Assembly: GCA_963827295.1 (NCBI GenBank)
Contig: CAWHAI010000017.1
Location: 1-61,125, forward strand
Reading direction: 5' to 3'
Length of the DNA stretch: 61,125 bases
Origin: an uncultured Chloroflexia bacterium
GTDB lineage: Bacteria; Chloroflexota; Dehalococcoidia; SZUA-161
Below are positions 2,770 to 32,740 of this stretch, piece by piece (the first letter of the stretch is position 1; each line of letters opens with the position of its first letter). The translations under genes were made by a program, and so were the position numbers. The notes under the pieces are model-generated. The model did not search any database. It was not told where the DNA came from and saw only the letters and a program-made list of their open reading frames with translations.

Positions 2770-2970
2770 AGTGCCTCATGGAGCGGCGCTCTGCTTGTCC
2801 AGGCAAAGGGACTTTCACCCCACCCAGCCCTGCAGTGATTCACAACGGGCTAGAAGGCGACTTGCCTCAGACTTCTTGCAGCCAGTGATATATCAGAGTA
2901 GAATATCTCGCAGTTACACCCTGGCTTTCTGTGGCTAGGTTATTGCCAAACAGTTAAACAGGAGGGGTAA

Positions 2971-3917
2971 ATGAAGAAGCTTACGATTCTGTTAACATCG
3001 CTCGTAATACTATCTCTGGCTATCGGTGTGATAGGCTGTGCCAGTGAAAGTGGGCAACCAACAACCACCCCTACACCACAGCAGCCCTTCACCGACGGCA
3101 ACGCCAATATATCCAGCCGTGGCACCGCAAATACCGCCGAGCGGTTCCTTCATCATCGATTTCGACGATTTCAATTCATCGGGGAATGTGTCACTCTTAC
3201 CAGGTAATAGCCAGTTTGACCTGGAGTTAGCCTCCTTTGATTCGTCGAATGGCGGACAGTTTGCAATTGAGAAGACTGCCTTAGGCGAGAGCAAGAACTG
3301 GGGCTTCGCAGCTTTCAATGTCGGTTTCTGGAATTCAGTTATTGTAGTAGGTCTGGCTGTTCCAGTGGCATCATTTGTAGCGTCTTTCAATCACACTCCC
3401 GTGCAACAGCCTGATTATACCTGGGTCTGGTCCTACGATGTCACTGTGGGAGGTGGGGTGTACCATGCGGAACTCCACGGGAAATATATCGATCAATGGA
3501 GTTCGCTGGGATATGTATATCTCCAAACAGAATGAATATACCAACTTCAACTGGTACTACGGTGAATCCAATCTGCCAGCAACTGAAGGCTTCTGGATTC
3601 TTAAGAACAAACCCACTGATCCCACCGACCTTTTACGAATCGACTGGCACCGCAATATTGCGGATAGCACCGGAGGTACCAAGTACACCAATATCGTCCC
3701 CGGTGGTGCGGAAAACGGTGGCTACATTTCTGCCGAGATAACGACCCAAACGCCCTATAACGCTTCCTACGATATATACAACAAGGGGCAGGATAACCAC
3801 ACCTATATAGAGTGGAGCCGCACAACTCAGGAAGGACGTGTTAAAGACAGTCGCCATTTCGGAGATAGCAATTGGCATTGCTGGGACGGAAATCATAAAG
3901 ATATTAATTGCCCATAG
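2971..3917 (+). CDS. secreted lipoprotein, hypothetical (frame broken twice in this assembly)
   Basis: Signal peptide plus lipobox (LAIGVIGC). The sequence continues sensibly through three overlapping frames (2971-3207, 3038-3535, 3438-3917). Confidence 0.6.
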
Positions 3918-4346: not shown

Positions 4347-5135
4347 CTACAACTTATCGTGCAATTCGTCGGGATGGTGGCGGGAGTGGTATTCCAGGCG
4401 GCTCGACTCGGCATGGGCTTTGTTGTAAGGCCAGCCCTGGGACATGCGGTTTCGCTCGTGGAGCTCGTGCAGCAGCACATAGCCACGCTCGGCTTCCTCG
4501 ATATCGTTGTCTATCCACACCTCATTCTCAGGCACGAACTCATAAACGTAATCATGCCCCCCTTCAGTGAAGTCGATATCGAAAGCGCTGCGCACCAGCC
4601 TGCCGTTGACGATCCAGACACTGAGGCCGCTTTGCAGTTTGCGCCAGAGCCTCTCGTGAACGTCTTTACCTTCGGGCAGTTTCTCTCCGCGGTGAGTCAG
4701 GATTTTCAAGTCTCCGGCGAGGCGGCGCTCTTTACGTTCGGCACGGTCGGCAATTACGATGGCTTTTTCGTAGGGCATGCCTCCCGCCATGAGCTTACGC
4801 TCTACCAGCAGGTGGTCAAGGAAAAACTGCCGCTCGTCATTCTGGGCTTCGCGGTCGATCCAGAGCTCGTTCTGCGGGATGTAAGGGTAGCGGTAGTGCT
4901 GGCCGAAGTTGGTGAACTCTTCATCCATATTGCCGCGGATGTAGGCGCCATCGACAATCCAAACCTCCAGATTGCCCCGCTCCTCCACCTTCTCAATGTA
5001 AGGAGGTTTTCCGTGCTCTGGCGTTAATCCCTCGTCTTTGGCAGGGCCGCTGGTCTGCATATCGAGATTATAGGGTGCACTCAGGTGAGAATCAAGGGGG
5101 ATACGTTCAGCTTCGCCACATTGACTTGATTGCAT
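4347..5135 (-). CDS. hypothetical protein with internal tandem domain duplication
   Basis: 262 aa. Two ~85-aa repeats share VWIV.G..R...F..GH.Y.Y.P.NE.WID...ER..M..G.PY. SD GAAGG..GAGG precedes the ATG. Confidence 0.6.
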   Translation of the reverse strand: MQSSQCGEAERIPLDSHLSAPYNLDMQTSGPAKDEGLTPEHGKPPYIEKVEERGNLEVWIVDGAYIRGNMDEEFTNFGQHYRYPYIPQNELWIDREAQNDERQFFLDHLLVERKLMAGGMPYEKAIVIADRAERKERRLAGDLKILTHRGEKLPEGKDVHERLWRKLQSGLSVWIVNGRLVRSAFDIDFTEGGHDYVYEFVPENEVWIDNDIEEAERGYVLLHELHERNRMSQGWPYNKAHAESSRLEYHSRHHPDELHDKL

Positions 5136-5175
5136 CCTCAGCCTTCTTGGGATAACATGGAATTGGAGGGATACG

Positions 5176-6231
5176 ATGGATGCGATTAGTGGACCTTCGG
5201 GTTTCGAGCTTGAGTTTCTGGATTACTCGCCTTCGGTGGAGGCGGAGAAGCAAGCACCGTCCTCTTTCGAGGAGGGGGCTGACTTCCTGGACGCCTATTC
5301 CAAAGCGGTGACAAACGTGGTGACCAAGGTAGGCCCTGCTGTGGTCAGCATAAGGATGAAGAAGAAAGCCTCCGAGCATTCCCGTAGATGGAATAATGAG
5401 GGGGAAGGCAGCGCATCAGGGGTGATCATCGCTCCTGACGGCTATATCGTGACCAATAGCCATGTCGTCGAGGCTGCTGACGTTATAGAGGTGAACCTGG
5501 CGGACGGCAGCAGCTACGGGGCTCGACTTGTGGGCAAGGACTCGGCGACGGACCTGGCTCTGGTGAGTATTCCCGGAGCCGGGCTGCCTGCAGCGCGCCT
5601 GGGCGATTCGGATAAGCTGCGGGTGGGGCAGTTGGTTATCGCTATCGGCAACCCGCTGGGTTTCCAGAGCACGGTTACCGCCGGGGTGGTCAGCGCGCTG
5701 GGGCGCTCGCTGCGCAGCCGCAGCGGCAGGCTTATCGAGAACATCATTCAGACGGATGCTGCGCTCAACCCGGGCAGCAGCGGCGGCCCGCTGGTGGACT
5801 CGCGGGGCCTGGTAGTGGGCATCAATACGGCGATTATCCAGTTTGCGCAGGGTATCTGCTTCTCCATACCGGTGAATACATTGCGCTGGGTGGTGACTCT
5901 GCTGCTCAGGGAAGGCAAGGTGACCAGGGGCTATCTGGGCATCAGCGGCCAGATGGTGCCACTGCCTGTGCGGGTGGTGAGGTATTACCGTTTGAAGAAC
6001 GAGACCGGCGTGCAGGTGATGGGTGTCGCTCCCAACAGCCCCGCTAAGGCAGCGGGCTTGAGGGAGGGGGATGTCATTATCTCTCTGGGAGAGGAGCCTG
6101 TGGCCGGCGTAGACGATATACACCGCATGCTCACCAGGGACGTTATCGGAAAGAAGCTGGACATGGTGGTGCTGCGCGAGTTCACCAAAAGGCTGGAGAT
6201 GTCTATAGCTCCCGCAGAGAGCCCCGACTAA
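5176..6231 (+). CDS. HtrA/DegP-family trypsin-like serine protease with PDZ domain
   Basis: GSGVIIAPDGYIVTNSHVV (His), DLALV (Asp) and TDAALNPGSSGGPLVD (Ser) motifs. C-terminal PDZ-like GVQVMGVAPNSPAAKAGLREGDVI. Confidence 0.9.
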   Translation: MDAISGPSGFELEFLDYSPSVEAEKQAPSSFEEGADFLDAYSKAVTNVVTKVGPAVVSIRMKKKASEHSRRWNNEGEGSASGVIIAPDGYIVTNSHVVEAADVIEVNLADGSSYGARLVGKDSATDLALVSIPGAGLPAARLGDSDKLRVGQLVIAIGNPLGFQSTVTAGVVSALGRSLRSRSGRLIENIIQTDAALNPGSSGGPLVDSRGLVVGINTAIIQFAQGICFSIPVNTLRWVVTLLLREGKVTRGYLGISGQMVPLPVRVVRYYRLKNETGVQVMGVAPNSPAKAAGLREGDVIISLGEEPVAGVDDIHRMLTRDVIGKKLDMVVLREFTKRLEMSIAPAESPD

Positions 6232-6350
6232 GCCGTTGACTGTCTGCGATGTCTGGTATACAATGCCCGCTAATGGAGTGAATCCCGGCGTGGGAAATCA
6301 GCGCAGGGATAGCATACCCTAGAAGCAGAAGTGCGGCTACAGGAGGGATT

Positions 6351-6908
6351 ATGAAGTGTTCAATTCATCCCGACGATGATGCCGTAGGCATCTGCGTTCT
6401 ATGTGGCAAAGCTGTTTGCCCGACGTGCCGCACTACGATAGAGGAGAAGATTTATTGCCCTGCATGCACCGCTAAAGTATACGAGACAGGGGCGGTGAAA
6501 CGAACGGGGAAGCCGGTTGTGGGTGGGATTCTGGGTATAATCGCGGGTGTGATCAACTTTTCGCTCGGTATTATTTTGATTACCGACGGTGCCACAGTTG
6601 AGTCAGTTAACTGGTCGGAAATGGGGCTGGGACAAGCCCTGGTTATTCTGGGGATTCTAGCCATAGTAGGCTCAAGCGTAGCGATTGCCAGGAGGAATTT
6701 TATTCTGTCAATTATCGGCGGTGTCTGCGCCTTGCCCGCGTTGCCGCTGGGCATACCAGCGTTGATTTTGATAGTCCTGTCTCACGCTGAGTTCGACCTT
6801 CCACCGGAAAGCTCGGTTTGCCCCGTTTGCGGAAAAGCGAATCCGAAGAGTGCGGTATTCTGTATGGTCTGCGGACGCGAGCTAGCGGGGCGCAGACCCG
6901 GCACCTGA
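6351..6908 (+). CDS. membrane protein with N- and C-terminal zinc-ribbon motifs
   Basis: CxxC pairs at the N-terminus (CVLCGKAVCPTC...CPAC) and C-terminus (CPVCGK...CMVCG), with central hydrophobic helices. Confidence 0.6.
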   Translation: MKCSIHPDDDAVGICVLCGKAVCPTCRTTIEEKIYCPACTAKVYETGAVKRTGKPVVGGILGIIAGVINFSLGIILITDGATVESVNWSEMGLGQALVILGILAIVGSSVAIARRNFILSIIGGVCALPALPLGIPALILIVLSHAEFDLPPESSVCPVCGKANPKSAVFCMVCGRELAGRRPGT

Positions 6909-7373
6909 GAATTGGGGCAGAACCCAGTCTCCACAGGGAGCCCGGACTGAACCGTTTATTTCCACTTTAGATAAGCTGTGGACAAACCCCTAGACAGGAA
7001 CGGGGAGTTCAGGTTCCACGCATAATTGGGGTAGCGGGGATTCCTTTCTTCAATTCGCCTTCATGTCCCTCATAGGCGCCTTCATCTCCAAGGAGGATGC
7101 CATATGTGGCAAAGCCCCCATTCTTAAAGGGGTTAGACCGATGCTGCCGGGAAAAACAACTATCGGCTGGAATGGGGCAACGTTTTGCGACAAAAGTCAT
7201 ATATATGGAGATTGTTAATTGTTATCGTGAAGTTAAGTTGTGTTCTCGATACGGCGTCAATGGAAGCTTCAGCTTCTATTAACTGACGTGTATAGACAGA
7301 AGAGTGAGTCACACGGAACAATTAGCGGTAATAGCTTGTTCGTCTATCATGGTTGGGGAGGAGGAATTCGGAG

Positions 7374-8000
7374 ATGTCAAGCGGGGTCAAGACTACGGAA
7401 ATTGTTAGGAGGCGGTGGAATAGGACTGCCCATCACTATGACTACATGATGGCTATTGCGGAGCGGGTCGGTATGAAGAAATGGCGCAGACTCCTGTGGA
7501 GCAAGGTGGGCAACAGTCGCGTGCTGGAGATAGGCGTGGGCACGGGCAATAACTTCCCCTACTATCCTGCAGACGCTGAAATAACCGCTGTTGATTTCAG
7601 CGAGGAGATGCTAAAGCGCGCCAAAGATAGGGCCAAAAACCTGAAGGTGAAAGTGGACCTACGGCAGATGGATGTGCAGAACTTGGAGTTTGCAGACAAT
7701 ACCTTCGATACAGTGGCGGCAAGTGCGGTATTTTGCTCCATTCCTGACCCGGTTCGCGGCATCAGAGAGGTGGAGCGGGTGTTAAAACCGGGCGGCAAGG
7801 CGGTCTTGCTGGAGCAGGACTTCAGTTCCAACCGGTTTTCGCGCTTGTGGGTGAAGCTTGTCAATCCGTTGGTAATGCGGATGGGGTCAGACTTTCGGCG
7901 GCGAACGATAGAGGATGTGGCGAAAAGCGGCTTAAAGGTGGAACGTGTTACCAACCTGTGGGCGGGGATGTTCAAGCTGATTGAAGCAAGGAAGGTATAA
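7374..8000 (+). CDS. class I SAM-dependent methyltransferase
   Basis: Motif I VLEIGVGTGNN, then DFSEEML and LKPGGKAVLLE. GGAGGAGG SD before the ATG at 7374 (the ORF is open from 7353). Confidence 0.85.
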   Translation: MSSGVKTTEIVRRRWNRTAHHYDYMMAIAERVGMKKWRRLLWSKVGNSRVLEIGVGTGNNFPYYPADAEITAVDFSEEMLKRAKDRAKNLKVKVDLRQMDVQNLEFADNTFDTVAASAVFCSIPDPVRGIREVERVLKPGGKAVLLEQDFSSNRFSRLWVKLVNPLVMRMGSDFRRRTIEDVAKSGLKVERVTNLWAGMFKLIEARKV

Positions 8001-9737: not shown

Positions 9738-10623
9738 CTAAACGAGCAGTAAGGATAGCTCTTCGTTGTTAACAAGGCGCTGTTCAAGTTTTCGCAATTC
9801 ATTTTCTTCAATTCCACTCAAAGCTTTTGCTGCTTGATCGATTACGAGCTTGACCACTTGTTGAGTTTTGGATTCATGCCTTTCAGTATATTGCTCCAGT
9901 AACTCGTGTACCTTTTTGTAGGGGTCCTGTAATTTTTGTCTCCTAATTGTTTCCTTCTCCGGTTCTGCTCCGCTTTTAGTTCTTCTAGCACATGATTGTC
10001 AACCCAGAAAGATATCTCGGCTAGCATCTTATCGATTAATTCGTCAAATTGTTGCTGCGTCTTTAGCTTAGGTACCCAGTCGGGAGTCGCGACCCTTGAA
10101 TAATAATCTCCTACCAACCAACCTAGTTTTGCTTGAAATATCTCTTGCAGTTGAGCAAAACGTGTGGCAAGACAGATATCATATTGGTCTGACTTTATCG
10201 CCACAGAGAGTGCTAGAAATGTCACATGAGGGGTAGCAATCTCTAGTTTGGGGTCTCAGCTAAATAGAAGTATTCAGGGAGATTGTTATTAAGTAGCTTA
10301 ATCAAAAAATCCCTGAGGTAATAACGCTTCTCGTTAGAGCAAAGTTTGCCGTCTTTTCTAAGGAATACTCTGGTGCTTCTCAAGTTCACGCTTTATTAGT
10401 GTATCTAACGGTCTAACAGCAGCGAGCGTTAAGTATCTGGCTTTGCATCTTCCGTCGCGGCGGAAAAGGTCACAGTTTTAGTGAGGACCATCAAATAGTG
10501 ATAGTCCGAATTATTGGCGTAGTGAGGGTGAAATTGTTGTAACACTTGACGTAGTTCATCAGAGACTTTGAGCAAATCGCCTTGCTGTAAATCGTCCTCA
10601 GGTCGCTTATAGGTAAAATGCAT
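9738..10623 (-). pseudogene. hypothetical protein, third gene of the island operon (at least 3 frame breaks)
   Basis: N-terminus MHFTYKRPEDDLQQGDLL..YLMVLT, then CDLFRRDG.., ..LPEYFYLAETP, ..HVTFLALSVAIK..YYSRVATPDW and a coiled-coil tail. These can be chained only by shifting frames near 10470, 10370, 10250 and 9960. Confidence 0.5.
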
Positions 10624-10643
10624 GTCGTAATCCTAATTTACCT

Positions 10644-10904
10644 TCATTTCAGCCTTCTAAGGCGTGTATTAAGCTTCACAAATATACGCCGCTCTAGCTC
10701 TCGCCGGATATCGATTTGGAATTTCAGAGCTTGCTGGGATTTTGCATTTACACTATCGGCATGTAGTCTTCCTTCGATTTCAGCGGAGTTGGCGGGGCAG
10801 TCGGTAGTGTCATTTTGTATAGGCTGTCTTAAATGACTCTTCTCACGGGTTTGATAATCTCCAGTTGGAATCGGCAAACTTGTGATATTCTCCTCTTTTT
10901 TCAT
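10644..10904 (-). CDS. hypothetical protein (86 aa), second gene of the island operon
   Basis: Its ATG overlaps the upstream stop (ATGA coupling at 10901-10904). AT-rich, with no recognisable motif. Confidence 0.4.
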   Translation of the reverse strand: MKKEENITSLPIPTGDYQTREKSHLRQPIQNDTTDCPANSAEIEGRLHADSVNAKSQQALKFQIDIRRELERRIFVKLNTRLRRLK

Positions 10905-11525
10905 TGGTCACCCTCCACAGGAATTTCAAATACCTGCTCGAGAACTGACTTAGTTTTCGTTCGGTGATTTAGGATTTTACCGTTAATATGGTTCTTTGCC
11001 GAAATAGTAGTTGGTGTATCTGAATGAAAATTAAACTTCATGAATAGTTCTCCATCTTTAATTTGAGCAGAGAGTCTGAGTTGTTGGCCCTTTATGCTTC
11101 AAAATCCACATGAATTCTCTAGATTGGATTATCAATTGCTGGCTAGCAAAAAGCTCCCCGTGAGCACTTGGGAACTGTCTAAGTAGCTCTGGAAGTGCGG
11201 GAGCGATCCGATACCCGAAATTGATACCCACGTTAGTTACTGGAGTATGAGTTAGGAGATCTAGGATAGTACATGCTATCTGCTCCATTCGTAGTAAGGT
11301 GGAGTCATCTAAATCAGCCGGCGCAAGAATTAAACTAGATTGAGTTGGAATCAAAGTGACCTTGTTGGCTGTTATTCTTCGTGGCATCCCGGGAACCATC
11401 CCGAACTCGAGGCCTATTTCTTGTGTTTGGAAAACGTTTTGCGCAAGCCATTCTGGACTGAATATAGCTGTATTCCATTTCCCAAGAATCACTATTGTCC
11501 AATGATCCCTGACTGCTTCCAGCAT
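10901..11525 (-). CDS. hypothetical protein, first gene of the island operon (one frame break near 11085)
   Basis: The 155-aa ORF (MLEAVRDHWTIVILGKWNTAIFSPEWL..) continues as GQQLRLSAQIKDGELFMKFNFHSD..PVEGDQ after a shift at the aaaggg/ccc run. Confidence 0.5.
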
Positions 11526-11916
11526 TCTGTTTTCTCCTGTGACGATATCAGCCTATGGGACGTATCTGAACACAGCTTAGTATAGAATTGAGCCCAAGCT
11601 AGCCAAACCAGAAGTAACCTTATACAACCATGTCAGTAGTGAAAATTTGCCTTGCGACATTCTATTTGGTATGTACAAGAATTTCAAGCTATAGGATGAT
11701 TCACATAAAAATGTTTATGGCAGTTCCTATAGCTGAAATCTTTGTGACTTATGAAGATTATATTATATACTCCCATAGGAATCAAGGGCGGGAGATTGCT
11801 TCGTCCGCCAGAGGCGGGCTCACAATGACATGGGGGCTATTTCAGGAGGCGGCGGCGCATCATGAACAGGGCGAGGGGGAAGAAGACGGCGATAAGGCCG
11901 ATGATGATGGCAAGGC

Positions 11917-11934
11917 CAGAATGACCCACTACCC
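11917..11934 (+). repeat. island-border motif CCAGAWTGACCCACTACC
   Basis: ccagaatgacccactacc. 17/18 identical to the reverse complement of 32404-32421, and its core is shared with 30419-30432. Confidence 0.6.
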
Positions 11935-11948
11935 CCGGCAAGTTCAAC

Positions 11949-11977
11949 TTGACAAAATGCACAAAAGGTGCTATATT
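11949..11977 (+). promoter_or_regulatory. sigma70-like promoter of structured RNA copy 1
   Basis: TTGACA (11949-11954), 17-nt spacer, TATATT (11972-11977). Conserved in copy 2. Confidence 0.55.
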
Positions 11978-11983
11978 ATTAGA

Positions 11984-12105
11984 TAGCCTCGGGTGGGCAA
12001 ACCAGTAAGAATGGCCAATCCGCAGGAGGACCTGAGTAGGAGACCAAAGGGGCCGGAGATGGCGGATAGGTTAGAGAGACTGGGGAGATCACCTGAGGTT
12101 TTTTT
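11984..12105 (+). ncRNA. unassigned structured small RNA / leader, copy 1
   Basis: A 9-bp closing stem (cctcgggtg / cacctgagg, one G-U) is followed by T7. Nested helices CCAGU/ACUGG and AUCCGC/GCGGAU. About 4 differences from the reverse complement of 32516-32639. Confidence 0.55.
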
Positions 12106-12405
12106 ATGTCCAGCGTTCCTTTAATAACCCCTCTATTTTGGTAGATTCAGTGTGTCCACAATTTGACAAACTCGTGTGCGTGAAGTAATATCCCAGCAGA
12201 TGCAGGGTACCCAGTTGTTCTCCTCTCCTACTGTGTCAGAAGCTAGAGACTCGTAACCATAGTAGACATACAGCACCCCTAGCGTGCGCCTGATGGGTGG
12301 GCTGTCCTAGTCCCTGCACCAGTTTTAGTTCCAACATTACATGAGTAGGTTGCCCCTACTCAGCCAGTGAAGTCTAATTTCGTATAACATGGAGGTGGGG
12401 ATAAG

Positions 12406-12633
12406 ATGAAAGTGCTCAGCTACGATTGCATTGACCGGCATCATCTTATAGTCAGATGTCCCGAATGTGGCAAGGGGATGGCAATGGTAACTTGCAAAGA
12501 AGATTTCAATGGCATCGCGGAGGCTAATTGCAGTGAATGCAATGCACTTCTGGCTTTCTATCTCATAATGAAAGAGCGCAAAGCCTGGATGTTAGGCATG
12601 CCGATTGAGATGGTAACCAAGCAATTAACATAG
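12406..12633 (+). CDS. small zinc-ribbon protein, hypothetical
   Basis: 75 aa with CPECGK...CSECN. GGAGGTGGGG SD. Lies downstream of RNA copy 1. Confidence 0.5.
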   Translation: MKVLSYDCIDRHHLIVRCPECGKGMAMVTCKEDFNGIAEANCSECNALLAFYLIMKERKAWMLGMPIEMVTKQLT

Positions 12634-12767
12634 TCGCCCCTTATAAATGAGTAGCCACGATAGTCAACCTAAAACCTGCTGCTGGTTCAGCAAAAGATAA
12701 CCTCGATAGAGCCAAATCGGAAATGGAGCGTGTCATTCTTCCTGAAGAAGGACTGCAATGACATGGT

Positions 12768-13020
12768 GTAGGGGCACGGTGCACCGTGCCCCTACGGGTT
12801 GGAGCGGATGCTCCAACCTACCCAGGAGAGTGATAGGCCCTTTAAGAGGCTCAGGACAGGCTCTCCCGTCAAGGGAGAGGGAAAAGGGCGATCCGATGGG
12901 TCGCCCCTACGGGTTCACCCTTCGACAGGCCCTTCGGCAAGCTCAGGACAGGCTCAGGGCGGACGGATGCTAATCCCCCTTATCCCCCTTAAAGGGGAGC
13001 CGCTACAGCCCCCGCAGCTA
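12768..13020. repeat. cluster of REP-like hairpins (family B)
   Basis: gtaggggcacggtgcaccgtgcccctac, gggttggagcggatgctccaacc, gggcgatccgatgggtcgcccc and other GC palindromes back to back. Confidence 0.7.
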
Positions 13021-13099
13021 TATCCGTTGACAATAAGCTACTGCTAGTTTATTGTACGAGTGGAGCGGCGGAGGTAATAATGTTTCGTCGGAGGTTGAA

Positions 13100-14414
13100 A
13101 TGGTAAGCCGAACCCCAAAGCGTATTCATCGCGTAGTGATGACCCTGGCTGTAGTTACTTTGCTGGTGATAGCCGTGGCTTCGCTTTCAGCCTGTCAAGA
13201 GGAGCCGGTTAAAACAGCAGCCGAATTTCATCTATATAACCTTCAAATAACTCCCCACGATGTTCAAGTTGGTCAGCAAGTAACCATCAGCTATAGGGTT
13301 GAGAATTCTGGAGGCACCGGAGGCACCTATCTGGTAAGCCTCAACTTGAATGGTACGGTTTATAGCCAGGATGATCTCTCCCATGTTATTGGGTTGACGG
13401 CTGCTGAGGGGTTTTCTATTGAGGCGTATCAGTCCTACAATGTAAGCTTCAACCTCGCCGCACGCTATGTCGGCAACAACACCATAAGTCTGGCTGATAT
13501 CGTGGATCCACCACAGATGTCTCCGGAGAACCTACGTTGGAGGAGGCCTATGGCGTAAGTGGGGAGTTTGTTGTTTCACCTGCAACAACACCTACGCCTA
13601 CACCGACTCCTACTCCTACGCCCACACCTACACCTTCACCATCGCCTTCAACGAGCGCAACTCCGACTGAGAGTCCACCTCCAGCTTCAACCACTCCAAG
13701 CCCGACTCCAACCCAGACCCCAACTCCAACACCTGCAACCCTGGAGACATGGGGCGCGGAAGCTTACGCCCAATTGTCTGATGAGTATTATTCTCCGCCC
13801 TCGTGGTCTGTCTTAACTGACAAGAGCAGTGTACGTGAAGATCAAAATTGCCAGCCGGCGCTATTTTACAGTAGCTTTCTCGCTATGAATGCCAAAGTTC
13901 ATTTGAAAATTAAGGTCTTGAAAGAATATGAGCTTGACGATGACTACATAGGTTTTGCCTTGGGCTTTCACCCGGAAGACACGAATAATCACAGTGCTGA
14001 TTACCTTCTTATCGATTGGAAGAGCAATTTCCCCGGTGAGAGCCTCGATCATAATTTCGGGGGCCCTTCTTGCGGCCCAGGGGGACTGGCGAAAGAGGGT
14101 TTAGCGGTATCCCGCGTCACAGGTATACCCACAGCCGACGAGTTCTGGCAGCATACTGACCAGGACGTTACTTGTTCCCGAAAGGGGAGGGGGTAACCGA
14201 GATTGATCGTGCAGCGACCTTAAAAAGTACTGGCTGGGTACTTGATCATGAGTATGATTTCAGTTTTGAGTTCAATGAAACTTCGTTGAAGGTCTATGTG
14301 GATGGGGTTCTCGAGATAAATATTTCGGGTAGTTTCAGTGATGGAAGGTTGGCGTTCTACAATTTCTCGCAGGCAGGGGTCACCTATAGTATCTCTGCAA
14401 CGAGCACTCTATAG
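13100..14414 (+). CDS. membrane-anchored surface protein: CARDB-like domain, Pro/Thr linker, LamG/jelly-roll-like domain (2 frame breaks)
   Basis: N-terminal TM segment. VGQQVTISYRVENSGGTGG. (TP)n/SP linker at 13575-13745. DDDYIGFALGF..DYLLIDWK. Frames switch near 13500 and 14180 (ggggaggggg run). Confidence 0.6.
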
Positions 14415-30418: not shown

Positions 30419-30438
30419 GGTAGTGGGTCAATTTGAAA
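30419..30438 (+). repeat. left direct repeat bounding the SIR2 cassette
   Basis: ggtagtgggtcaatttgaaa versus 32404-32423 ggtagtgggtcaatctggaa (18/20 identical). Confidence 0.65.
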
Positions 30439-30504
30439 AGGAGAAAAAATGAGTAGATGGCTGCGTTTCTGAACAGAACCGAGTTGCGTTTAAGGGATAA
30501 TTAT

Positions 30505-30545
30505 CGGACAAAACAAGAGAGGCCTGCCGAATGCTAGGCCTCTCT
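30505..30545 (-). terminator. intrinsic terminator of the SIR2-like gene
   Basis: 9-bp stem gagaggcct/aggcctctc with a 10-nt loop, followed on the minus strand by TTGTTTTGT. Confidence 0.6.
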
Positions 30546-30688
30546 CCACTTCTGGATATCTAGAGTATGTACCTACCGATGCGGCCCCCCCATAATTTTC
30601 ACCTCCTACATCCACTTAATTCTCTTTTTACCATATTCATATCCATTTGTCAATGGTCACATGACTAAGGTACTGCGGGATGTAATCG

Positions 30689-32326
30689 TTAATCGTTATC
30701 ATCTTCAGCAGGCGGTCTCCACTTGTCAAGTAGTGTCTGTAAATCAGGGTCATCCCAATAATCCTCAAACACTACAAACATCTCAACCTGACCGGGTGTC
30801 AGAAGCTTGCTCTCCAGCGCATCGCGTAGTGCTGTTAACATGACTTTCTTCTGCTTGCGCAGAGCCGCGATTCCAGCGCGAATATCATCTTCACATTTCC
30901 CAGCTTCTATATTACGAAGTTCCTTGCCCAGTTCTTTCTTTTTCCCGAGGCGTTTCAAGGCGATTGCCCGATTTATTCTGACCAATTGATCCGTCGGGTT
31001 TATGACGAGCGCCTCATCTGCCTTTCTTACAACGCCATCATTATCATCGGCATGGAGAAGATAGTAAGTAATATTCGCAGCATCGTCAGCATCGAACCAA
31101 TTCTGATCGACCAAAGACTTGAGTTCAGTCTTTCGGCCTAGCTTGGCAAGTACTTCAACTATTTCGTACTTAACTGAGCTGTCATTCGGATCGTCTTGAT
31201 GTGCCTTCGTTAGATAGGCTAAGGCACCTTCCAAGTCACGCTTATGCCTAGCCACAACCGCTCTAATTGATGGCGGGAAATCATCTTCCGCTATCCTAAA
31301 CACCACATGGTCACCGGGTTCTTCAGGTTCTAATATGCTGCCACTAATACCTTCAAGTACCCGATTAATGTCTCGGGCAATAATGGGGTTGTTCTTAATT
31401 TCAGGGGGTATATCCAAAAAAAGACGAGTTCTGTCACGTGCTGCGCTAATAGGATGTGCAATTACCTTTGGGAGATCTAGCCCTGTCTTGTCATGAATGT
31501 ATGCCATAAATTCATCAAAGCCGTCAATCTCTGCACAATAAACTCTGCTCTTTCGTAAGAAAGCACCTAGTCGTTTGCAGGGCAGTTCTCCCTTGCGTAC
31601 GCACCAATATACGCCGTGGCCGAAAAACTCATCGCTCCTTATTAACACATCGAGGATATCCATCACTGACCGATCCCTGCCACCATATCCTACAATGATT
31701 AGGCCATATTCTTGAGCGAACTGCATGAACTTCTTCCTCATATTGTCTTCTAGTCTTGCCAGTTCGCTAACGGTATTCTTGATGTTGTCGAAAAGAAAAT
31801 CTCCATGAAGTTTGATTATCTTAGGCCTAGCTGGCGCGACGCGAATCCCGGTTACAGCGGAATCATGAGCGCAAACAATTGGTCGGAGACCGTCTGAGTA
31901 TAGGAAGCACGCTTCGTTAAGGAGATCATCAAAGTTCGTTGTAAATACAACATTGAAAATGTTCTCTTTAAGAAGATTAGCTAAGTAGACATATCCCCAA
32001 CTCGGATGAGCGTTCTTCAGACGTTCTTCGATATAGGCGCGTCGCTGGGCTGGCTGGTCGTACAGACTCTCAAATAAGATTGCATATTCATCATCTGAGC
32101 CATACGACTCCTGTTTCTTTATCCAATTTGCGAATGTTTGGCCTGACCCACTACGCCTGTATAGTTCGCTTCGCCACACTTCGATCATCTCGGTCGCCGT
32201 CTTTACCCCAGAAGTGGCCGAGGCTCCTGACCCTAGGAGAAGGGCAAAGTTTGAAATTCCTGCATTCCTTGTCAAGACTAAGTTTGTTAGATGCTCCGTA
32301 GACCTAGATTCGCCACTCGAAGCCAT
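30689..32326 (-). CDS. SIR2-like (SIR2_2) NADase domain protein with C-terminal TPR-like helical repeats
   Basis: 545 aa. LLLGSGASATSG, FTTNFDDLLNEA, KIIKLHGDF and IIVGYGGRDRSVMD motifs. The C-terminal ~200 aa are helical repeats (ALAYLTKAHQDDPND.., AIALKRLGKKKE). AT-rich. Confidence 0.8.
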   Translation of the reverse strand: MASSGESRSTEHLTNLVLTRNAGISNFALLLGSGASATSGVKTATEMIEVWRSELYRRSGSGQTFANWIKKQESYGSDDEYAILFESLYDQPAQRRAYIEERLKNAHPSWGYVYLANLLKENIFNVVFTTNFDDLLNEACFLYSDGLRPIVCAHDSAVTGIRVAPARPKIIKLHGDFLFDNIKNTVSELARLEDNMRKKFMQFAQEYGLIIVGYGGRDRSVMDILDVLIRSDEFFGHGVYWCVRKGELPCKRLGAFLRKSRVYCAEIDGFDEFMAYIHDKTGLDLPKVIAHPISAARDRTRLFLDIPPEIKNNPIIARDINRVLEGISGSILEPEEPGDHVVFRIAEDDFPPSIRAVVARHKRDLEGALAYLTKAHQDDPNDSSVKYEIVEVLAKLGRKTELKSLVDQNWFDADDAANITYYLLHADDNDGVVRKADEALVINPTDQLVRINRAIALKRLGKKKELGKELRNIEAGKCEDDIRAGIAALRKQKKVMLTALRDALESKLLTPGQVEMFVVFEDYWDDPDLQTLLDKWRPPAEDDND

Positions 32327-32403
32327 TGATTCCTCCCCTTGGCAACGTATAGCGGTGCGATATTATCACACGACCATGATTTTGTCTACATCTAAGAATG
32401 GAC

Positions 32404-32423
32404 GGTAGTGGGTCAATCTGGAA
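32404..32423 (+). repeat. right direct repeat bounding the SIR2 cassette
   Basis: ggtagtgggtcaatctggaa. Its reverse complement ttccagattgacccactacc matches 11917-11934. Confidence 0.65.
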
Positions 32424-32515
32424 TGAGCACACGATTTAAGAAAAATGTAACATAAGGGAAGATAAGGTAGCATCGTGCATAATAATGTTATGTGAAGCAA
32501 AGGGACGCCGGACAT

Positions 32516-32639
32516 AAAAAAACCTCAGGTGACCTCCCCAGTCTCTCTAACCTATCCGCCATCTCCGGACCCTTTGGTCTCCTACTCAGGGTCCTCCTGC
32601 GGATTGACCATTCTTACTGGTTTGCCCACCCGAGGCTGT
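32516..32639 (-). ncRNA. unassigned structured small RNA / leader, copy 2
   Basis: The reverse complement is colinear with 11984-12105. It has the closing stem cctcgggtg/cacctgagg plus U7 and a perfect inner stem GGACCC/GGGUCC. About 190 nt upstream of the SIR2 start. Confidence 0.55.
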
Positions 32640-32644
32640 TTATA

Positions 32645-32673
32645 AATATAGCACCTTTTCTGCATTTTGTCAA
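32645..32673 (-). promoter_or_regulatory. sigma70-like promoter of structured RNA copy 2
   Basis: Minus strand: TTGACA (32668-32673), 17-nt spacer, TATATT (32645-32650). Confidence 0.55.
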
Positions 32674-32719
32674 GTTGAACTTGCCATTTTGTTAATTGAA
32701 GTTTCTATTCTTTCCCAAA

Positions 32720-32740
32720 ATGATACACTACCCGCGAAAG
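32720..32740 (-). repeat. degenerate inverted copy of the border motif
   Basis: The reverse complement gctttcgcgggtagtgtatca resembles 30409-30430 gctcgcgaaagggtagtgggtca. Confidence 0.4.

Follow-up and report, generated by a model that had tools for sequence, protein, structure and literature searches.

Known 6S RNAs (gene ssrS; Rfam family RF00013) are about 150-200 nt long and are transcribed from stand-alone genes with a housekeeping-type promoter. The Dehalococcoidia are key organohalide-respiring and subsurface bacteria, and their RNA biology is almost unknown. In Dehalococcoides mccartyi CBDB1, a study of 2026 described three abundant small RNAs (sRNAs) without an Rfam match, one of which, 'sRNA1', is 188 nt long, has a sigma-70 promoter, folds as a hairpin with a central asymmetric loop, is accompanied by small antisense transcripts and was proposed, tentatively, as 6S RNA by the authors (PMC12961961). 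The stretch of DNA analysed here, called the window, comprises 61,125 nt of an uncultured Chloroflexia bacterium placed by GTDB in the Dehalococcoidia (metagenome-assembled genome (MAG) GCA_963827295.1, contig CAWHAI010000017.1). The element in question is an sRNA gene next to a SIR2-like gene, to which an earlier note made from the sequence alone had drawn attention.

The segment 32516-32673 (minus strand) of the window encodes a small structured RNA and, with a sigma-70 promoter of its own, constitutes an autonomous gene. With high confidence, it can be described as one of at least two distinct copies in its genome and as a member of a family that is spread throughout the Dehalococcoidia and probably occurs in other Chloroflexota, whose ancestral copy lies tail-to-tail with a gene for a GAF-X-HGPRTase and whose D. 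mccartyi orthologue is the abundant RNA of about 188 nt proposed as 6S. The family is uncatalogued, comprises abundant structured RNAs and probably spans the phylum. Its D. mccartyi member alone has been described, tentatively; what appears to be new is the family as such, together with its structure, the compact form common in it and the partner gene conserved beside it. For this highly expressed, covariation-supported family the analysis provides a model of the structure, a model for searches and a genomic partner that is conserved.

The RNA gene and its predicted fold

All coordinates of the window locus refer to the minus strand unless stated, and the transcript ends were inferred from a homologue seen in metatranscriptomes. 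The features of the gene are as follows.

32668-32673, minus strand: -35 hexamer TTGACA of the sRNA promoter, where homology to the other copies begins
32645-32653, minus strand: extended -10 element TGcTATATT (TATATT at 32650-32645, TG at 32653-32652)
32516-32637, minus strand: predicted sRNA transcript (about 120 nt), beginning near A32637 and including all of U7, according to the fold and covariance-model matches
32626-32635, minus strand: P1 5' strand CCUCGGGUGG, paired with 32523-32532 in a 10-bp closing stem
32621-32625, minus strand: 5' side GCAAA of a symmetric, purine-rich, conserved 5x5 internal loop, in which C32624 pairs with G32534
32616-32620, minus strand: P2 5' strand CCAGU, paired with ACUGG at 32538-32542
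32606-32610, minus strand: P3 5' strand UGGUC, paired with GGUUA at 32548-32552
32599-32604, minus strand: P4 5' strand AUCCGC, paired with GCGGAU at 32554-32559
32567-32594, minus strand: apical domain, P5 GGACCC/GGGUCC around the 16-nt loop UGAGUAGGAGACCAAA, with the signature GAGUAGG, a mini-hairpin and (G)AAAGG
32533-32537, minus strand: 3' side GGAGG of the 5x5 internal loop, conserved
32523-32532, minus strand: P1 3' strand UCACCUGAGG, which together with U7 forms an intrinsic terminator
32516-32522, minus strand: U7 tract of the terminator, directly 3' of P1

The promoter proposed in the earlier note (TTGACA, a 17-nt spacer and TATATT) was recovered by a promoter scan with the addition of the TG of an extended -10, the whole arrangement TTGACA-17-TGcTATATT being near-consensus at 11/12 positions. 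The RNA body starts at C32635, about 9 nt past the -10, and its 113 nt are predicted to fold into a single rod with a minimum free energy of -53.5 kcal/mol (z = -5.5), as low as in none of 200 shuffles. The rod consists of five stacked helices, P1-P5, with purine-rich internal loops between them. Since U7 directly follows P1, the rod doubles as the intrinsic terminator, and a simple terminator scan missed it because its 'loop' is the whole RNA.

Much of the structure outlined in the earlier note agrees with this fold. The pairing of the 5' end with the 3' end ahead of U7 was found as claimed (CCUCGGGUGG at 32635-32626 with UCACCUGAGG at 32532-32523), and the nested helices CCAGU/ACUGG and AUCCGC/GCGGAU are real and covary. 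The 'perfect' GGACCC/GGGUCC helix, on the other hand, is Watson-Crick in the window lineage only, and P3 (UGGUC at 32610-32606 with GGUUA at 32552-32548) had been missed, the description being otherwise correct. A recurrent purine word is also present, as GGAG four times (p about 0.05) and as RGAGRNC three times (p about 0.002 relative to mononucleotide shuffles); the words coincide with internal loops rich in G and A, and their conservation as words is only partial. Neither the window RNA nor the related, D. mccartyi-type and long-variant loci had a match in Rfam 15, whether at the gathering threshold or at E<=10, and hence none to a housekeeping RNA. The earlier note had been right to withhold a GEMM-I assignment.

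Compensatory changes in the helices

Covariation was assessed by pair counts on a model-guided alignment of 64 sequences, where fit to the model favours the result. In this alignment 92.9% of the helix cells were paired, and double compensatory changes were found in 22/25 pairs of four helices, so that the structure-preserving covariation by which the earlier note had proposed to judge the fold is present by pair counts. No shuffle (0/500) reached any of the five covariation measures, and the covariation score of 0.368 compares with at most 0.11 when partners were slid by 1-3 columns. Double changes affected 9/11 pairs of P1 (99.3% of cells paired), 4/5 pairs of P2, 4/4 pairs of P3 (75.7% of cells paired) and 5/5 pairs of P4; the central pair of the 5x5 loop covaries as well (CG 39, UG 17, UA 7). 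Compensatory examples read by hand from MAFFT alignments agree with the model-guided counts. The helices contain 156 G-U pairs versus 21 A-C pairs, and because G-U far exceeds A-C the promoter-bearing strand is taken as the functional one.

The base of the rod (P1, 5x5 loop and P2) is the most conserved part, with the consensus YCYYRGGUGRKYRAACCRG ... CYGGRRAGGUYACCYRRGR. A kink-turn was considered for the basal loop and rejected by inspection, as the registers do not fit. In the apical domain, most relatives have G-C, G-C, three purine-purine mismatches and C-G in place of the Watson-Crick P5 of the window lineage. The apical signature, that is GAGUAGG, a hairpin of 2-5 bp and (G)AAAGG, is kept in the most distant members, including Dehalococcoides, and its mini-hairpin covaries (GG/CC, GGC/GCC, GGC/GUC, AGU/GCU). 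By inspection, the signature bears a resemblance to the AGUA/GAA loop-E (bulged-G) motif.

Copies of the gene and spread of the family

The source MAG (1.38 Mb, 63% complete) carries three copies of the RNA gene. Besides the gene described above (copy A), the window holds a second:

11937-12116, plus strand: copy B, a complete gene (promoter, RNA at 11987-12108, terminator), 94% identical to copy A

Copies A and B are alike over 187 nt only, from 12 nt before the -35 hexamer to 14 nt after the U-tract. The surroundings of copy B (window positions about 9800-14300) and the copy on contig 39 of the MAG (locus L033) share at least 4.5 kb at 95-96% identity, which is either a segmental duplication or the product of two strains binned together.

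The first covariance model, R1, was derived from 29 unique sequences and scored the window RNA at 113.6 bits. With BLAST and R1, the RNA was found in 20 of the 25 genomes of the window's taxonomic family, in 1-3 copies each, while genomes of another Dehalococcoidia family carry up to 7 copies, in forms of 115 nt and of 147-160 nt. Paralogues within one genome have a common base and a differing apical domain. In all but a few of the copies read, similarity spans the gene from the -35 hexamer to the U-tract; among 61 further unique copies from metagenomes, a strict promoter pattern is satisfied by 46, an extended -10 being recurrent in homologues, and a U-tract is present in 57. The carriers are MAGs of Chloroflexota/Dehalococcoidia. 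Members range from 66 to 190 nt, most being about 113-125 nt long.

Weak R1 matches in other taxonomic families all lay opposite the 3' end of a GAF-X-HGPRTase gene, and therefore a second model, R2, was built from 14 distant members, none of them from the window's family, the multi-copy family or Dehalococcoides. R2 recognised the window RNA (39.9 bits, E 4e-8) and copy B (36.9 bits), as well as the rod-shaped RNA opposite GAF-X-HGPRTase in three single-contig genomes of D. mccartyi type (1.36-1.52 Mb; 33-37 bits, E 1e-7 to 1e-6). Across the class it found matches in 81/401 Dehalococcoidia genomes, representing 56/223 genera and at least 25 families. Seven genomes of other Chloroflexota classes gave weak matches of 30-39 bits; the six that were inspected are 126-152 nt long with the GAGUAGG/GAAAG signature and mostly a promoter, one of them near an X-HGPRTase gene. 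At locus L128 (G254:C186), two identical mini-RNAs of 76 nt, at 2957-3032 and 3664-3739 (minus strand) and 700 nt apart, consist of P1, the basal loop, P2 and one hairpin, and they lie beside a 167-nt version and a GAF-X-HGPRTase gene.

Abundance of homologous transcripts and the relation to sRNA1

The window's own copy was found in none of the public sequencing runs searched, and expression was seen in its homologues. Abundance was read from contig depth, a crude measure against which a gap of three orders of magnitude is still robust. Many metatranscriptomes contain a homologue that belongs to the window's family and is about 78% identical to the window copy. In a freshwater run, 82 contigs lay on this RNA only, with a summed word depth of 5000-8000 versus 0 in the flanks, and library adapters joined the sequence at two points, 2 nt ahead of CCUCGGG and at the initial U of the tract; in a second run its depth was 52 versus 3-6 for hpt, the HGPRTase gene.

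The D. mccartyi-type RNA opposite GAF-X-HGPRTase was covered in two transcriptomes of pure cultures and in two metatranscriptomes from bioreactors or groundwater, where its summed depth reached 160,000-890,000 versus 86-460 for the flanking genes, with adapters at about 592 and 755-762 versus predicted ends at 582 and 771. It is a rod of 186-190 nt that carries about 75 additional nt inserted on its 5' side. Its size, abundance and shape agree with those of sRNA1 (188 nt), with which it also has in common a sigma-70 promoter, a hairpin and the lack of an Rfam match, and consequently it is most likely the same RNA (PMC12961961). The link from sRNA1 to the window RNA runs through R2 and the common position opposite GAF-X-HGPRTase; the two differ by the 5'-side insertion, and the published account covers one species. 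The MAG locus is almost certainly tied to the transcript that ranks third in abundance in D. mccartyi, after the two rRNAs. In a D. mccartyi-type genome the gene for the abundant RNA is preceded, at a distance of about 200 nt, by a tRNA gene (L218:292-365, plus strand).

A recurrent convergent neighbour, GAF-X-HGPRTase

The RNA adjoins a GAF-X-HGPRTase gene at 29/51 unique genome loci and at 39/61 unique metagenome loci, and of the 113 R2 matches, 64 (from 62/80 positive genomes) are found immediately beyond the 3' end of this gene, on the opposite strand. As a rule the two genes are arranged tail-to-tail, a few to about 35 nt apart, and this layout recurs in at least 25 families, with a varying flank on the other side. 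At locus L029 the stop codon TAA of hpt lies inside the U-tract of the RNA, and the opposite strand reads as a hairpin followed by ACAUUUUUU, which makes it plausible that this junction is a bidirectional terminator.

The protein has about 480 amino acids, with 65-95% identity across genera, and is composed of an N-terminal GAF domain, a middle domain and a C-terminal HGPRTase. The latter is bona fide (TIGR01203, 195 bits against a cut-off of 150; HGPRTs of the PDB, 1e-57), and an RNA binding of the PyrR kind by the phosphoribosyltransferase domain was rejected accordingly. The middle domain (TPDFYLP..DLYIEMT) has a predicted alpha-beta3/4-alpha-beta pattern and no sequence match in Pfam, NCBIfam or PDB; it resembles PD-(D/E)xK. 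An example of the whole fusion protein is encoded at L029:5024-6463 (minus strand). The AlphaFold model of the whole protein is poor (predicted local distance difference test, pLDDT, 55), and Foldseek matches the GAF domain only. A protein with the middle domain occurs in 160/401 Dehalococcoidia genomes, sometimes without GAF (open frames of about 310-340 amino acids). Strict co-occurrence with the RNA failed at first, because the protein is far commoner than R1 matches (30 genomes), and the broader model R2 removed a large part of this discrepancy.

In one genus a second RNA copy lies about 490 nt upstream of the GAF-X-HGPRTase gene, with a 74-codon open reading frame (ORF; MSCYFRHLKDILAEAG..., at L029:6685-6909, minus strand) between that copy and the start of the gene. 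Convergent pairs of the RNA about 2 kb apart, present in several genomes and at first suggestive of a mobile-element RNA (ωRNA, bridge RNA or terminal inverted repeats), merely flank the GAF-X-HGPRTase gene, and that identity was rejected. Two groups of paralogues have other partners: those of 147 nt at L111, L117 and L121 are tail-to-tail (21 nt) with a RelA/SpoT gene and near a gene for CCA-adding enzyme/poly(A) polymerase, and those at L109, L114 and L120 are tail-to-tail with a flavodoxin gene. One may speculate that the copies opposite hpt, and the one group opposite relA/spoT, tie the family to guanine-nucleotide metabolism. The sole HGPRTase match detected in the source MAG (G000 contig 28, 540-1056, minus strand; L129 and L130) lacks both the GAF and the middle domain, falls into two frames separated by an in-frame TGA and has no adjoining RNA copy.

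Possible function of the RNA

The function we favour, tentatively and at somewhat less than an even chance, is that of a compact 6S-like RNA binding RNA polymerase, a role that fits the abundance, the rod shape, the conservation throughout the lineage, the lack of a canonical 6S and the antisense transcripts of the published account. In this view the closing stem of 6S would correspond to P1-P4, a long composite stem with about 38 nt on each side, and the bubble to the purine-rich open region at GAGUAGG/AAAGG. The holoenzyme of the housekeeping RNA polymerase would be sequestered by the RNA, whose placement opposite hpt, and that of some paralogues opposite rel, would link it to nucleotide status. 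As in 6S RNA, a stand-alone gene with a housekeeping-type promoter encodes a rod with a putative irregular closing stem of this length and an open purine-rich region. The D. mccartyi orthologue is likewise among the most abundant cellular RNAs and has short antisense transcripts reported (PMC12961961), and the family is conserved lineage-wide where canonical 6S goes undetected. RF00013 was found in none of 6 RNA-carrying genomes by a search that in the control was sensitive in only 5/14 model genomes, and the missing canonical 6S is therefore weak evidence.

Several points weigh against a 6S-like role. RF00013 gave no match even at E<=10 for the window RNA, the D. mccartyi-type RNA or the larger variants. 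The window RNA is 113-122 nt long, most of the family is about 113-125 nt and some members have only 66-76 nt, as opposed to the 150-200 nt or so of 6S; relatives of 146-190 nt also occur. Past the bubble there is no long internal stem, only the hairpin of 2-5 bp, and up to 7 copies per genome are unusual for 6S. Contig depth is a poor measure of expression, and the window's own copy was in no run. The equation of the hpt-convergent D. mccartyi RNA with sRNA1 is one that we infer, and the 6S assignment of sRNA1 is itself tentative (PMC12961961). If the RNA is truly 6S-like, the minimal 6S architecture would be redefined; if it is not, a new abundant RNA-protein particle would be at hand. As a half-size 6S relative or as such a particle, it might be a core component of the Chloroflexota, locked by convergent transcription over a common terminator to GAF-X-HGPRTase as a ligand-sensing enzyme of purine salvage (in some paralogues to Rel) and coupling the availability of RNA polymerase to guanine-nucleotide/(p)ppGpp status by a hitherto undescribed mechanism, a scheme that we consider possible but on balance unlikely.

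The main rival, though rather unlikely, is a subunit or scaffold of another, still unknown abundant RNA-protein particle, and the bad fit of size to 6S speaks for it. Proteins would then bind at the invariant basal module (P1, 5x5 loop, P2) and at the apical, loop-E-like AGUA/GAAA module, and the variable middle would set paralogues apart, as in Y RNAs or vault RNAs. Conservation of the base and the apical signature over lengths of 66-190 nt, paralogues of one genome that keep the base and vary the apical domain, and a very high abundance are all consistent with it, and in Y RNAs and scaffold RNAs, too, the two ends pair within a conserved basal module that terminates in a U-tract, and the paralogues differ in the upper part. 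However, the Rfam families Y_RNA and Yrl did not match, rsr (Ro) was not present among the neighbour genes examined, in the absence of a dedicated Ro/TROVE search, and no candidate partner was found, the sole recurrent neighbour being convergent, not co-transcribed and a bona fide HGPRTase. CsrA (PF02599) and Hfq (PF17209) are absent from 12/12 genomes. A CsrA sponge and an Hfq-dependent sRNA were rejected for this reason, even though CsrB, RsmY and RsmZ resemble the window RNA in their length of about 110-130 nt, several unpaired GGA segments, multiple copies and own promoter and terminator; its GGA segments lie in the internal loops of one rod and not in hairpin loops. A separate locus for signal recognition particle (4.5S) RNA (RF00169, 66-74 bits) in 4/6 RNA-carrying genomes led to the rejection of that identity.

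An action confined to the neighbouring gene is improbable. In such a case the RNA and GAF-X-HGPRTase would share a bidirectional terminator, the 3' end of the hpt mRNA, necessarily antisense to the RNA gene, would pair with the abundant RNA or read-through would yield antisense hpt RNA, purine salvage would be tuned in this way and the other copies would be dispersed duplicates. The tail-to-tail layout kept in at least 25 families, the L029 junction with the hpt stop within the U-tract of the RNA and the hairpin and ACAUUUUUU on the other strand, and a depth raised about tenfold for 100-350 nt past the RNA 3' end into hpt in two runs all point in this direction. Nevertheless, the roughly sevenfold excess of G-U over A-C indicates that the structure of one strand is selected, beyond a mere palindrome; a terminator has no need of the conserved loop sequences, neither of the window copies faces a convergent gene, nor do many paralogues, and the RNA is about 1000 times as abundant as the hpt mRNA in unstranded contigs. 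Local antisense or terminator coupling to hpt is, in any case, compatible with the RNA being 6S-like or part of an RNA-protein particle. More doubtful still, and distinctly improbable, is a family of trans-acting base-pairing RNAs ('sibling sRNAs') whose purine-rich apical loop would be a seed for pyrimidine-rich targets. Known sibling sRNAs are also multi-copy with their own promoter and terminator, and the 16-nt loop is conserved and unpaired; against this, the 12 genomes lack Hfq, the conserved loop cannot mask Shine-Dalgarno sites because it is purine-rich, its conserved residues suit a structured AGUA/GAAA motif with a covarying hairpin and not a free seed, and the extreme abundance is atypical. 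A ligand sensor, such as a GEMM-I-like c-di-GMP aptamer with P1 doubling as terminator, is barely credible: GGGCAAACC, as the earlier note remarked, superficially resembles a GEMM-I segment and P1 is indeed a terminator stem, but neither GEMM-I (RF01051) nor any other Rfam riboswitch family matched at E<=10, downstream genes are unrelated or convergent, and homologues accumulate as a stable, abundant species. Cis-regulatory leaders and riboswitches in general were rejected, as no same-strand downstream gene is conserved and most copies are followed by a convergent gene.

The SIR2 cassette beside the window copy

Downstream of copy A lie the following features.

30419-32423, no strand assigned: SIR2 cassette, outside the RNA, with 20-nt direct repeats at 30419-30438 and 32404-32423
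32388-32360, minus strand: SIR2 promoter-like site inside the cassette
30689-32326, minus strand: ORF with SIR2_2 and TPR (Pfam), starting at ATG 32326

The start of the SIR2 ORF lies 189 nt beyond the U-tract, in agreement with the distance of about 190 nt given in the earlier note, which had left the choice between an independent sRNA and a leader or attenuator of this gene. The former is strongly supported by conservation that runs from promoter to terminator, by discrete and abundant homologue transcripts and by covarying helices. The SIR2 segment measures 2 kb, has a GC content of 44-46% versus 53-60% in the flanks, leaves the RNA outside and is bounded by repeats GGTAGTGGGTCAAT(T/C)TG(A/G)AA that match at 18/20 positions; it looks like an inserted defence cassette. 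Neither the SIR2 adjacency nor the surroundings in the window recur at about 110 other unique copies with catalogued neighbours, and the locus of the nearest relative has nothing in common with the window except the RNA.

Control of the SIR2-like effector by the RNA, whether as leader/attenuator or as type III-like antitoxin, is consequently highly improbable. The position of the SIR2_2 and TPR ORF on the strand of the RNA, 189 nt downstream, speaks for it, and at the window locus alone the succession of promoter, RNA, terminator and effector gene does recall the ToxI-like RNAs of type III toxin-antitoxin systems. That analogy, drawn in the earlier note, fails in that the RNA has no tandem repeats, the effector is not a ToxN-type endoribonuclease and the adjacency is not conserved, the recurrent neighbour being the convergent GAF-X-HGPRTase gene; a type III antitoxin was thus rejected. 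The leader is no better placed, since none of the other copies adjoins SIR2, the repeat-bounded, low-GC cassette excludes the RNA and contains a promoter-like site of its own for SIR2, and a GC-rich 10-bp stem with U7 stands between the two. SIR2 would be a later cassette insertion beside the RNA gene, which would not regulate it. The RNA-SIR2 link is incidental, an accident of cassette insertion, and the tempting reading of an RNA-gated SIR2 defence gene is removed.

The 17-mer GGTAGTGGGTCAATYTG occurs four times in the window, versus 0.14 times expected by chance, at 11917-11933 (minus), 30419-30435 (plus), 32404-32420 (plus) and 32716-32732 (minus). Two of these sites bound the SIR2 cassette, one abuts the promoter of copy B and a degenerate one lies 45 nt upstream of the promoter of copy A; the 17-mer may be a recombination site that places cassettes beside the RNA genes.

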